Made by a program: the position numbers and the translations under genes. The notes beneath the pieces were generated by a model. The model saw only the letters and a program-made list of their open reading frames with translations, did no database searches and was not told the DNA's origin. Of a stretch of 64,000 bases of DNA, positions 14,935 to 63,996 are shown piece by piece. Numbering within the stretch: the first letter of the stretch is position 1; the number at the start of each line of letters is the position of its first letter. The stretch comes from a virus. Its lineage: Duplodnaviria; Caudoviricetes. Where the stretch lies: IMG/VR virus record IMGVR_UViG_3300037247_001786, positions 352,001 to 416,000 of that record; one strand, written 5' to 3'.

Positions 14935-15627
14935 GGAAAACAAAAGTTATTAAAGCCTCTCCAGCAGCACTCGAACAAAGGATAGATACTTGGATAAAAT
15001 GTAACCCAAGAGCAGAAATAATTAGAACAAGTGCTGCAGCCATAAATGAATACAATGTTCTATATGTGATAATATATGAAGAAAAACCAATATAACACCG
15101 ATACCTCAAATAATTTGCCAGAGTGGTAAAAAATGGAATTTATAAGAATATGAAATATAATACTTGTCAAAATCATAAAACTCCTGACCAAATAGAAAAA
15201 GAAGATCATCGCTCTATATATCAAAAAAGATGCCTACTGTCTATAGGAGATAAAATAAAGGCTACTACCGAATTTAGAAAAGTAATGATTGGCTCATATA
15301 GACCAAAAGAACCTGTATTCGAGGGTGGCAAAATCATAGAGTTTAAAGATCCATACGACTCAGATGGAAAAACAGCACACTCATTGGCAAATGTAGAAAT
15401 GCCTTGCGGTTGTACACATCGTATCAATACAGCTTGGCTTGTCAAAATCTAACCCTTTTTCGCGAGAAATAAAAATCCCCATTAATAACCCAAAAATCCA
15501 TATAAACTACAATATACACAAGATTAATATATAATGACTACAATACTTAATATAATAGCAACTATAATATATGGACTAATCATATTTAGCGAACACATAT
15601 ATATAAAGATAACACAAAGATAACAAT

Positions 15628-15858
15628 ATGAAGAATAAATTCACATGAGGACACGCTAACGACGAATCCAACATAAGACTAAATGGAGAACACTATCTCG
15701 AAATATCTAACTATGGACATACAAAAGAAGTAATAGATAGAGTAGAACATATCACCGAACTACTAAACCAAACAACAACTGCTGATGTAATACCAGAGCC
15801 TCCACAACCTCCACCAAAGAGAGTAATCATAGAGGGAGTAAAGATAATACAAGAATAA
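15628..15858 (+). pseudogene. ORF interrupted by in-frame TGA at codon 7
   Basis: ATG AAG AAT AAA TTC ACA TGA GGA CAC..., then the frame stays open 69 more codons to TAA. Confidence 0.4.
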
Positions 15859-16242
15859 CAAACAAAGCACAGATCAAACCACAGGGCTTATACCCCCTTA
15901 TCAGAATACCAGTTAATAGCTCAAAAATCAACTATGGCAATCAATAGGGAAAATAATGGAACTAAGTGGTACAGAGTGGTGTAAAAGGGTGAAAAACCCC
16001 ATTATTACCCAAAAACCCAATTAGAGGTCAAAAACCCAATAAATATTGCTCACAAACCTATAACCCAAATATAATAAGAAAAATGCTTATTATTGATACA
16101 CAAGCACCAAATAGGAATATCTTTAAATAATTCTCATCGACCGATCTCGATAAACCGACTCTATTTACCCTTAATATAATAATAAGAATTATTTTTATTC
16201 CTTATATAAAAGTAATGATACACCTTATATCAAGTACTATGG

Positions 16243-16470
16243 CACTCTTTGTCATATTTGCCAGAGTGACAAAAAAACTGTTGTCTGGTATAAGTTGTTT
16301 TCAGTTGCACCAAGTTATTACCACTCTGGCAGTTATTTGATACAATTATTTGCCAGAGTGTGAAAAAACACTTCTTATATATGTAGCAGTCATATATTTT
16401 GTTAAAAACTGTCACTCTGGCACTGTATGGGTCATATTTATTTGCCAGAGTGGTAAAAAGTGCTTTTTAT
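16243..16470. repeat. Three units of inverted box pairs with 92-bp period; candidate replication origin
   Basis: Forward boxes at 16258/16350/16442, reverse CACTCTGGCA at 16322/16413, partial reverse CACTCT at 16243; coincides with compositional skew flip. Confidence 0.7.
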
Positions 16471-16482
16471 AAGAAATAATAC

Positions 16483-16511
16483 TTGAAAGTGATTTATCAT
16501 TATGATATAAT
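16483..16511 (+). promoter_or_regulatory. sigma70-type promoter
   Basis: TTGAAA-17-TATAAT with TG upstream of the -10. Confidence 0.8.
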
Positions 16512-16551
16512 CACGTTCTGTATTTGAGTTTATTTTTTGGAGAGAAAAGTT

Positions 16552-62103: not shown

Positions 62104-62145
62104 CAAAAAATATATCTTAACACTGTATAACGAATAGTAATTTAT

Positions 62146-62349
62146 GCCGGGAGTCGTAGAAGTAGAAACAGAGTAGCGGAATGCCGAACCCCCTTAAGCA
62201 AGGGCTTGACCGCGGGCGAAAGGTTTTTACCGAAGCTATTAGGGTAGATAGACGTACCCCTAATAGAAGCATAGAGAAAACTAACTAATAGTTGAGCTTG
62301 AACTGGGTTGACTTTCTCTTAAACTCTTAACGGGGTTCTCCTGGCACCA
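62146..62349 (+). ncRNA. 204-nt structured RNA ending in acceptor-like stem plus encoded CCA
   Basis: GCCGGGAG/CTCCTGGC-A-CCA; 12-bp internal hairpin CTATTAGGGGTA/TACCCCTAATAG; downstream of the box at 62092; no ORF on +. Confidence 0.6.
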
Positions 62350-62880
62350 TTTTTTGAGAAAGAAAGTAATGAGAAACAGAAAAACACATGTAGATTTGCC
62401 CATAAAGATACCCCAAAATATACTTGATATATTGATAGAGTATCAAAACTGGAGAAAAGACCAGAGTAAATACCCTAAAGGGTATAAACTTGGAATGCTT
62501 AAAAAGCTAGATAAAGCATGTCTTAAATGGCATTTATACGCTGGTTGGGAAAGTATGGGTGGTTCTTTCTTTTTCCATACTAAAGTGGGTATTATGATTT
62601 ATACTCATGTCAGTGGAAGTAAGCCTTTGAAAATTCAGCAATGTACTGATAAAGATAGTAATCCTTGGAATGGGGAATATCCTCGAACAGAAGAAATAGA
62701 TAACTTTGTTTATCATTGGGATAAATACGAGCCTTTAATACTGTAATTCTTCGATTTCTTTATTCTAGGGGAAGTGTAACAACTTCCTCTTTTTTACGCG
62801 AAAATAAATTGCCAGAGTGATAAAAAAACTCTCTTATAGTATTGTAAACAATAACAATATTATTTTTAGGGAGTAAAGAA

Positions 62881-63264
62881 ATGAAAACGAAACAAGAAAT
62901 CGAAAATGGAATGGCTCAATGTATTGGTACCGAAGGGTATCACTTCAATGGAATGTTTGGTAAAAACTTTGTCTACACCGATGGTATCAAGTTTTTACTC
63001 GAATCGGCTAATGCCTATTGGCTATTGACTGCTATTTTCTCTTATAAGAGAACAGAAGATTTTCAAGTATGGACTTTGAAGGTCTCGAATGGCAAGGCAG
63101 TATTAACAATGAAAGAGGATACAAATACTCCCGTTATCGTCAAACAAGAAATACCTTATACAGATTTCCCACTTGACGAAATCGAAGTTTGGGCTATTAA
63201 CGACCACAATTGTAACGGAGAGTATGGCGATCACGTCGTACTAATCTTGAAATCTGAATACTAA
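62881..63264 (+). CDS. DUF6876-like protein
   Basis: YTDGIKFL...AYWLL...FQVWTLKV...QEIPYTDFPLDEI. Confidence 0.7.
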   Translation: MKTKQEIENGMAQCIGTEGYHFNGMFGKNFVYTDGIKFLLESANAYWLLTAIFSYKRTEDFQVWTLKVSNGKAVLTMKEDTNTPVIVKQEIPYTDFPLDEIEVWAINDHNCNGEYGDHVVLILKSEY

Positions 63265-63705
63265 AACTCCTTAAATGAGCGATAGGGTGGCTTGCCAGCG
63301 TAGGTAAGCCGCCTTATTCGTTATTGCCAGAGTGGTGTTTTTTCTATCTTATAATGATATAAAGAACAATAATTTTTGCGGAGAAATAAAATGATAGATA
63401 AAACTGATGTCAAAAAGATAGTAACGACCAAACAAGATAACAAAAGGCTATTTATTCTTACAAGCGGATATTATAGTAAAACTTTGGACTATTTTCTTTT
63501 TTTAATAGATATAGCAAAAGAAAGTTTTCCTGAATTAGAACCAAAAGATATAAAAATAAACCATTATACAGGTAGATTCCATAAGGGGCAATGTGGAATA
63601 GAATTTAGTGTAGTATGTAAAAATGTACCTGATGGTTATGAAGAGTATGGCGATAGAATGGTTTGTACACATTATCCTACATAATAACCTTTATGGAGTA
63701 AGAAA

Positions 63706-63996
63706 ATGAGTAAAGAATACTGGATAGAAAGTCTCGGACGTATCGAGCTGCAAATGACAATGGAACAAGCCGAAATGGTGCCACTGTCTGGAGATGTGGA
63801 ACACGGAGTTTGTCTCTTATCAAAAGAAAAAGAGATAATTGATCAATTGGATAAATATACTCCGAAACTGATAGCAGAATGTTTATCAGAATATGGATGT
63901 TGGAATGAGGAGCAATTAAAAGACCATAAAGAGAATATATTACGTCTTTTATGGATGGCTGCATCTGATATTCAAGAAAAAGAATTGCCAGAGTGA
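63706..63996 (+). CDS. Conserved hypothetical phage protein
   Basis: LSEYGCWNEEQLKDHKENILRLLWMAASDI; ends in box-encoded LPE-stop. Confidence 0.65.
   Translation: MSKEYWIESLGRIELQMTMEQAEMVPLSGDVEHGVCLLSKEKEIIDQLDKYTPKLIAECLSEYGCWNEEQLKDHKENILRLLWMAASDIQEKELPE

Follow-up and report, generated by a model that had tools for sequence, protein, structure and literature searches.

The middle promoters of phage T4 carry a MotA box, (a/t)(a/t)(a/t)TGCTTtA, centred at -30, and the promoter classes of phage SPO1 are distinguished by sigma replacement (gp28, gp33/34) and by known pairs of -35 and -10 sequences. To our knowledge, almost nothing has been learned of transcription in uncultured megaphages, and promoter-mediated shuffling of gene cassettes has so far been described for T4-type phages. 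The promoter-stem-loop cassettes (PeSLs) of T4-type phages consist of a host sigma-70 consensus promoter and a G/C stem-loop terminator (PMC2839356, PMC4122927), while promoters of the group-5 sigma factors TcdR, BotR and UviA have TTTACA as the -35 and GTTATA as the -10 element (PMC4031146). The present analysis concerns a repeated sequence, TTGCCAGAGT (hereafter the box), in 64,000 nucleotides of DNA (the window) that represent bases 352,001-416,000 of the 460,978-bp virus record IMGVR_UViG_3300037247_001786, a marine-sediment phage of 34% G+C. It is considered probable that the box belongs to a lineage-specific promoter with a transcription start at position 35, that a phage factor redirects the host enzyme to this promoter, and that the promoter serves at the same time as a crossover site for cassettes.

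Positions within the motif are numbered from the first T of TTGCCAGAGT, which is position 0, and "+n" denotes n nucleotides (nt) from that T. The window contains 52 exact copies of the box on the + strand, between 15115 and 63985, and none on the - strand, and at up to one mismatch it contains 58 matches, as compared with 2.6 +/- 1.5 in dinucleotide-preserving shuffles. Across the whole genome there are 67 exact copies on the + strand and one on the - strand, and 65 boxes fall between 367,115 and 422,294, in one block of 55 kb with a median spacing of 669 bp. A previous sequence-only reading of the window had counted about 53 boxes, almost all on the + strand, and had proposed that both strands of the genome be scanned for the motif; its count and its strand bias are both borne out. 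One-mismatch matches on the + strand at 45620, 49525 and 63292 lie within open reading frames (ORFs) and score far below the full motif, and those on the - strand at 16323 and 16414 are inverted copies of the box only.

Per-position counts extend this 10-mer to a non-palindromic motif of ~45 bp, aT-TTGCCAGAGTG-nn-A6 (or T6)-N6-TTATAG-nA-nTRT-nAA, of which TTGCCAGAGT is the upstream part and in which the box is followed by an A/T tract, TTATAG and T-R-T. Around the box, A at -2, T at -1 and G at 10 are conserved. The tract at positions 13-18 is made of A residues, or of T residues in 8 copies, and has G or C at just 14 of 402 positions; its sequence supports a role as a shape element. Further downstream, TTAT at 25-28 is followed by A29, G30, A32, T34, T36, A38 and A39, and position 35 is a purine in 66 of the 67 copies. 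The spacing noted previously, with TTAT, TTAG or TTAA beginning 25 nt from the first T, was recovered in nearly all of the 51 testable window copies: TTAT occurs at +25 in 43 and TTAG, TTAA or TTAC in 7, and only one, the first direct copy of the cluster discussed below (16258), has no such element.

The distance from box to gene allows a transcription start to be proposed. An ATG stands exactly at +35 in 15 copies, 13 of which open 42-228 codons, and none of these 13 ORFs has an alternative start led by a Shine-Dalgarno (SD) sequence at its 5' end. Reading frames of at least 42 codons follow just 27% of all the ATGs in the block, which makes chance a very unlikely explanation (~2e-6 by a hand-worked binomial). 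The +35 ATG recurs in related contigs, including an orthologous pair at window position 60682 and at position 3697 of contig L127. A leaderless mRNA must begin at or just before its ATG, which places the putative start at position 35, the conserved purine, so that in the 13 SD-less ORFs the start codon would coincide with the transcription start. This purine lies 7 nt past the last T of TTAT, within the 7-10 nt predicted previously, and relative to this start the box would span -35 to -25, the A/T tract -22 to -17 and TTATAG -10 to -5, with TTAT at -10 to -7. Elsewhere, SD-led start codons downstream of boxes cluster at +60 to +76. Promoter function is thus supported by several features of the sequence: a uniform orientation that matches that of the genes, the fixed distance to start codons, the leaderless ORFs at +35, a transfer RNA (tRNA) gene that begins at +37 (Table 1), the A/T tract and conservation in relatives.

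The promoter is not of the canonical type. Primary sigma factors need A at -11; counted from a start at 35, this position is occupied by C or T in 58 of 67 copies and by A in just 5. In a sigma-70 consensus scan of 44-64 kb, 72 sites were found as against 76.8 in shuffles, hence no excess, and only 1 of the 30 boxes in this region was called, which marks the class as non-canonical. The scan agrees with the earlier description of the box as a non-sigma70 upstream element, but what is conserved is a core CCAGA(G) and not a -35-like TTG. A sigma-70-family geometry can be fitted (TTGCCA at 0-5, 18 bp, yTTATA at 24-29 and 5 nt to position 35), with hexamers that fit no characterized sigma among those checked; for T at the second position of the -10 element (-11), the GTTATA of TcdR-type sigmas is a precedent (PMC4031146). 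No phage RNA polymerase was detected by searching for the beta and beta-prime families (Rpb2_6, Rpb1_2), for T7-type enzymes and for an NADFDGD-like motif in the ORFs, although very divergent polymerases could escape these searches. Together with a -10 region that lacks the -11 A, this result suggests that the host core enzyme is probably used and is directed to the box by a phage-encoded factor.

The boxes fit closely between genes. About 26 begin 0-1 nt past the upstream stop codon and ~6 more within 4 nt, and in 8 cases the upstream ORF runs into the box, where it finds its stop codon, TGA or TAG, at positions 9-11 and ends in Leu-Pro-Glu; in total, ~40 of 67 boxes abut (<=4 nt) or contain the upstream stop codon. 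A terminator-like hairpin with a T run precedes ~15 of the 67 (two of these hairpins are tRNA arms), whereas it precedes only 3 of 300 random control positions. The location of boxes at gene boundaries or behind terminators had been pointed out before and is confirmed by these counts. Because the same sequence lies flush against nearly every gene, the box would constitute a crossover point for the deletion, insertion and re-ordering of cassettes.

Recombinant junctions that correspond to such crossovers are present in related strains. Logan contigs from four marine metagenome runs (X2-X5) were aligned to window 44-64 kb, and in two places a single cassette proved to be absent, in two runs each, through deletions of 468 and 411 bp that are exactly box to box (Table 1). 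The left flank at 55155 joins box 56129 in one run and box 52941 in another, and other joints fall at the 3' end of a leader that is common to several cassettes (61157 to 59445; 40258 to 25320). Alignment of a second region, 24-44 kb, yielded mostly tRNA cross-matches and one useful junction. Among 113 array proteins there are six paralogous pairs only. In relatives the backbone order is partly retained, with cassettes replaced, missing or moved, and a 4-kb stretch of L127 contains homologues of genes at 423, 412, 379, 414 and 416 kb of this phage. Since searches with PF00589 and PF00239 found no tyrosine or serine recombinase in the phage, homologous exchange on the repeated promoter is the likeliest mechanism. 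The proposal that boxes supply repeated homology for gene gain and loss, with breakpoints at boxes in relatives, has in this way gained substance: the sequences support gain, loss and re-ordering of genes by crossovers in the repeated promoter, and the weight of the case rests on the exact junctions.

Six leader modules of ~65 nt are nearly identical from TTAT to the start codon and contain a palindrome, AGTGTTA-ATAA-TAACACT, and GGAG. The module was described previously as a feature of many copies; it is real, but it is confined to these six. The six ORFs behind the modules are mutually unrelated, and the spacers at positions 10-24 diverge while positions 25-66 are conserved, so that the leader is either selected or exchanged separately from box and ORF. 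As a separate observation, at 52252, 60156 and 60164 runs X2-X5 show other box variants (TCCCAGACGGTG, CGCCAGAGTAAG) joined to leaders and genes that are otherwise 85-99% identical, with the break between spacer and TTAT. Short palindromes occur at the putative start, AGTGTTA-ATAA-TAACACT at 40223-40245 and TATTGT-AA-ACAATA at 62834-62850. A start at +35 would transcribe part of the 5' arm only, and the leader palindromes may therefore be DNA sites rather than RNA hairpins. Another palindrome, TTTTCGCGAAAA, recurs just 3' of terminator hairpins and 5' of promoters (window 33890-33915, 62791-62808 and 24400-24420; genome 417545 and 420528), and it is present in relatives and in a bacterial island as well.

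Relatives were found by scans with longer patterns and rescoring with a position weight matrix; BLAST against deposited phages returned no close relative, and the short box pattern returned chance singletons only from IMG/VR. Contigs Ga0180437 and Ga0180438 (L127, L138, L141, L143, L170, L182, L193) encode homologues of array genes at 35-78% protein identity and have the same promoter flush against gene ends. The architecture is kept in relatives in which the boxes have drifted around the conserved core CCAGA(G). In a complete Anaerohalosphaeraceae chromosome, 7 of 8 promoter matches lie within 9 kb, by an integrase and a RuvB-like gene, and in a Phycisphaerae metagenome-assembled genome 10 of 11 lie on two contigs; outside these islands, the counts in both bacterial genomes equal those of a reversed-pattern control. 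This confinement to islands argues that the promoter is specific to a mobile-element group and is not a housekeeping signal of the host. Two box-headed cassettes, for DUF6876 and for a 136-amino-acid (aa) protein, are common to the islands and the phage, and Phycisphaerae (Planctomycetota) are the probable hosts. The earlier notion of a phage-specific promoter class thus holds in its first part only: a promoter is supported by sequence, but islands in two Phycisphaerae genomes carry the element, which is not strictly confined to phages. The 136-aa protein was considered as a DNA-binding factor and rejected, because it is acidic and does not look DNA-binding. In three Phycisphaerae loci, L270 (15900-16420), L271 (1000-1100, - strand) and L272 (1400-1500, - strand), a box promoter appears to drive a conserved ORF-less RNA (GGAAAAG..GTGGCGTA..CCCGCCCCCT.GGG) that is divergent from a box-driven RuvB-like AAA+ gene, lies beside the integrase in L270 and has no match in Rfam.

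Outside the array, the dominant intergenic motif is that of a second promoter class, cTTGAAAGTGATT, 11 nt and (TG)nTAtAAT, which has ordinary geometry and ~27-32 copies genome-wide on both strands. Just past its -35 element an AGTGAT block is conserved, in related phages too. Two regulators lie behind promoters of the second class: a FliA/WhiG-like sigma of 281 aa (genome 47,262) and a winged-helix protein of 226 aa. Two other sigma-70-family genes, encoding 193 and 187 aa (32057-33204), stand behind a box (31997) and a strong terminator and would thus be products of the box class rather than its initiators. These positions suggest a cascade that opens with the host-type class and continues with the box class, the two small sigmas being reserved for something later. 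A scan for sigma-28-type promoters, of the kind expected for a FliA-like sigma, gave 9 matches as compared with 6.7 expected and led to no assignment.

The winged-helix gene is preceded by a regulatory cluster in which direct boxes recur at a constant interval together with inverted copies of the box only (Table 1). This layout is kept in five related contigs (L143, L273, L275, L289 and L288), each with its own box variant, and within each lineage the direct, inverted and promoter copies change in concert. Free sigma factors normally do not bind DNA. Conservation of the box-only inverted copies in every lineage consequently points to a protein able to bind the box unaided, which a free sigma would not do. 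The 226-aa winged-helix protein is tentatively put forward as this reader, a choice that is open to serious doubt, with the FliA-like 281-aa phage sigma as second choice. Metagenomes contain more than 100 clusters of homologues of the 226-aa protein, for which Pfam, PHROG, NCBIfam and PDB gave no sequence match. AlphaFold models the protein with confidence (pLDDT, the predicted local distance difference test, of 89), and residues 75-190 match many winged-helix DNA-binding domains, including those of OmpR/PhoB, Orc/Cdc6 and Fur, at Z 5-6 (VIA), which is a generic fold match only; Foldseek returned nothing significant for the model from PDB. The 1.1-kb non-coding stretch before the gene (window 15453-16536) also contains repeats such as AAAAACCCCATTA..ACCCAAAAA, found in L273 as well, and degenerate TAGCACYGAAT units, and could be an origin or an RNA gene.

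These results lead to a scheme that deduces from sequence the promoter activity, the temporal class of the genes and which factor is involved. The box would be the upstream half of a lineage-specific promoter that is used ~67 times in one orientation, most copies driving one small accessory gene and others driving tRNAs, ORF-less RNAs and the two phage sigma genes, and all box-driven genes would reside in a hyperplastic block of 55-60 kb. The host core enzyme would then be directed to the box by a factor that the phage expresses from its ordinary-looking TTGAAAGTGATT...TATAAT promoters, so that the box genes would form a second, middle-type temporal class. The box itself would be bound independently by a protein, for which the adjacent winged-helix protein is the best guess. 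A bolder version is unlikely: this protein would represent a new family of small winged-helix proteins, distinct from MotA, that retargets the host polymerase to the CCAGAG box in Phycisphaerae megaphages, and the integrase-bearing host islands, which have the same promoters without the winged-helix factor, would be satellites or defence islands, silent until a megaphage infects and provides the activator.

Several observations weigh against the proposed scheme. A second repeat, TAGCACYGAAT, lies between each pair of box and inverted box and has diverged less between lineages than the box, so that the winged-helix protein may bind this repeat instead. In the bacterial islands the promoter occurs without a homologue of the winged-helix protein, and none was found in three bacterial genomes. 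TATAGT at 26-31, which is TATAAT in the relative L275, resembles a sigma-70 -10 element; used as such, it would place the start near +38, in conflict with the leaderless ATGs and the tRNA. Regarding the junctions, Logan contigs built at k=31 can be mis-joined at repeats of 31 nt or longer, which affects the joint with 34 shared nt and not that with 12, and, since most genes have a box, gene-level insertions and deletions touch boxes almost by default. Finally, a search that sampled DNA and RNA runs found phage sequence in DNA runs only, no RNA-only search having been made.

The alternative that survives best has the box serve as the -35 element of the phage's own sigma, either the FliA-like protein or, through a positive loop, the two sigmas of ~190 aa, without a separate activator. 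The phage has three sigma-70-family genes, CCAGAG at -32 to -27 and TTAT at -10 to -7 have the spacing of an alternative sigma, and TcdR-type sigmas do use GTTATA as their -10 element (PMC4031146). Set against this are the inverted box-only copies, which have no -10 element and yet are conserved in every lineage, although a free sigma would not be expected to hold them; the two small sigmas, whose position behind a box and a strong terminator means that they cannot start the class; and the bacterial islands, which would need the same sigma. This explanation is accordingly regarded as possible and on the whole doubtful. Less probable still is a reading in which the host primary sigma recognizes the boxes as ordinary strong early promoters, with TTGCCA as -35 and TATAGT as -10, and CCAGAGTG is an operator at which a phage repressor, for instance the winged-helix protein, shuts the block off later. 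Each hexamer matches its consensus, TTGACA or TATAAT, at 5 of 6 positions, one relative has a perfect TATAAT, the inverted box-only copies look like operators, and the islands have the promoter without the winged-helix gene. The spacer between the hexamers is nevertheless 20 bp and thus outside 16-18 bp; the consensus scan calls just 1 of 30 boxes; a start near +38 would truncate the 13 leaderless ORFs and remove the first base of the tRNA-Phe; TTG is replaced by TTT, TCT, TCA or CCG in relatives; and the motif is absent outside islands in the bacterial genomes.

It is very improbable that the boxes act in replication, packaging or partition, as iterons or some other signal at the DNA level, with the winged-helix protein as initiator. 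The winged-helix fold does resemble Orc/Cdc6 and iteron-binding initiators, and the cluster with its 92-bp period lies in the non-coding stretch, upstream of a RecA/DnaB-like ATPase gene; such a function would cover at most the cluster at 16.2-16.5 kb, where GC skew does not turn, and not the 60-odd gene-oriented copies at a fixed distance from start codons. An integron-like cassette system, with site-specific recombination at the repeats and promoter activity secondary to it or lacking, would explain why the array is uniformly oriented, why each small ORF has one repeat that lies flush with ORF ends, and why single cassettes are excised exactly. It is nevertheless scarcely credible: no tyrosine or serine recombinase is detectable in the phage, the repeat is not palindromic like attC, and the fixed start-codon distance, the leaderless ATGs and the start of the tRNA are features of a promoter. 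Junctions are found at the 3' end of the shared leader too, as homology-driven exchange predicts.

Table 1. Coordinates of the box array, its cassettes and associated features (window positions unless stated otherwise)
Feature	Position	Strand	Details
Putative promoter array, window part	15115..63994	+	52 exact boxes; array extends as far as genome 422,294; one outlier at 427,507
Box starts 1-26	15115, 16258, 16350, 16442, 18859, 21768, 24372, 26918, 27446, 28930, 30413, 31667, 31997, 33916, 34906, 36796, 38757, 39641, 40198, 41221, 41804, 43879, 44694, 45280, 46077, 46730	+	
Box starts 27-52	47198, 47786, 48927, 49981, 50864, 51640, 52228, 52941, 53852, 54019, 54994, 55331, 56129, 56609, 57020, 58218, 59041, 59381, 59788, 60132, 60647, 61097, 62092, 62809, 63324, 63985	+	
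Regulatory cluster	16254..16471	+	direct boxes 16258, 16350 and 16442 exactly 92 bp apart; inverted box-only copies 16323-16332 and 16414-16423
Second-class promoter (TTGAAAGTGATT, 11 nt, TATAAT)	16483..16511	+	in front of winged-helix gene
226-aa winged-helix protein, candidate box-binding factor	16552..17232	+	
Box and tRNA-Phe	21768..21876	+	first tRNA base 21805 = +37; called by ARAGORN and Rfam
Box behind strong terminator hairpin, heading two tandem sigma-70-family genes	31997..33204	+	genes 32057-32638 and 32641-33204
Putative leaderless cassette	33916..34229	+	ATG 33951 = box + 35; 92 codons; no Shine-Dalgarno sequence
Further putative leaderless (+35 ATG) designs	boxes 15115, 31667, 41221, 47198, 48927, 53852, 54994, 56129, 57020, 60647		
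Promoter and leader module	40198..40263	+	one of six near-identical; others at 52228, 59041, 59381, 60132, 61097
PARP-like ADP-ribosyltransferase gene	41854..43164	+	behind box 41804; WGR, PARP regulatory and PARP catalytic domains, the full eukaryote-like layout
Cassette absent in X3 and X4 contigs	46730..47197	+	joint 46725 to 47194; 468 bp = distance between boxes 46730 and 47198; 34 nt common to both sides
ORF-less unit	53852..54018	+	box, ~130 nt without ORF, terminator-like hairpin with T run
Other ORF-less units	behind boxes 28930, 54019, 62092		
Box forming the end of the upstream ORF	56129..56140	+	TTG CCA GAG TGA, ends LPE; likewise 59788, 60132, 62092, 63985
Cassette absent in X2 and X3 contigs	56609..57019	+	joint 56606 to 57018; 411 bp = distance between boxes 56609 and 57020; 12 nt common = box itself
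Longest putative leaderless cassette	57020..57741	+	ATG 57055; 228 codons
Box and DUF6876 gene	62809..63264	+	gene 62881-63264; cassette including box also in relative L127 and Phycisphaerae islands L270 and L271
Box variant, this phage			TTGCCAGAGTG
Box variant, L143			TTGCCAGA(G/C)TA
Box variant, L273			TTTCCAGAGTA
Box variant, L275			TyTCCAGAGGTG
Box variant, L289			TCACCAGACAcT
Box variant, L288			TTTCCCAGAAG

The genes of the block are mostly small ORFs without matches, together with genes for DUF932, DUF6876, a RecA/KaiC-like ATPase and an HNH protein, in addition to those in Table 1. DUF932 and DUF6876 are typical of the leading regions of mobile elements, and the content of the block fits an early or middle accessory region for host takeover. 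There are 33 tRNA genes at window 21482-33870, and for two of the tRNAs (22206-22296 and 30465-30555) ARAGORN gives two-base anticodons and an unusual length. Within the window Rfam recognized no RNAs other than tRNAs, and the bacterial islands yielded no match; the folding z-scores of the ORF-less units are weak, ranging from -0.1 to -2.6. Upstream of the array, two adjacent radical SAM/SPASM genes (window 6470-8706) lie behind a promoter of the TTGAAAGTGATT class.

The array provides a promoter class that is defined by sequence, a putative start site, a short list of candidate factors and a probable link to Phycisphaerae. It would mean that promoter-mediated shuffling operates in an unrelated phage group and with a different promoter design, with junctions visible in natural populations. 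The promoter could in addition mark early or middle accessory genes, possibly for counter-defence, in this group of phages.

Comparison with described systems reveals partial likenesses to each. Integron arrays likewise consist of one-directional, single-ORF cassettes that are separated by a repeat and excised precisely one at a time, but their cassettes are promoterless, whereas here each has its own promoter and neither an integrase nor an attC-like palindrome was found. Promoters of the TcdR/BotR/UviA type share a -10 element with T and not A at -11 (yTTATA here), and this phage also has small sigmas of ~190 aa; the -35 sequence differs, and the likeness concerns the promoter. As in the host-takeover module of SPO1, a dense run of promoters would drive small early or middle genes, with sigma genes under the previous class, yet a standalone protein that binds the box is indicated here rather than sigma replacement. 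The resemblance to the MotA/AsiA middle promoters of T4 is closer in design: a phage box near -30 would replace -35 recognition at dozens of copies, the activator would come from early promoters of the host type, and the candidate reader is a small, putatively DNA-binding protein of ~210-230 aa. Nonetheless, the box here, CCAGAGTG / TTGCCAGAGTG with the core CCAGA(G), bears no relation to TGCTT, and neither sequence comparison nor Pfam connects the candidate protein with MotA (no search for AsiA was made). The -10 region does not read TAnnnT at -12 to -7, and many transcripts would be leaderless. PeSLs, to which the sequence-only reading had likened the array, are similar in that a repeated promoter flanks ORFans in a hyperplastic region and acts as a crossover point for insertions, deletions and replacements between related phages, and the concentration of 65 of the 67 copies in one 55-kb block of small, mostly unannotated genes accords with this. 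Shuffling and hyperplastic location are thus common to both, but the likeness is one of analogy, since the promoter here is not the host consensus, with TTGCCA and TATAGT 20 bp apart, and only ~15 of the 67 copies follow a hairpin, most of them instead abutting or overlapping the upstream stop codon. The element, which is not integron-like, is therefore likened to MotA middle promoters and to PeSLs while belonging to neither.

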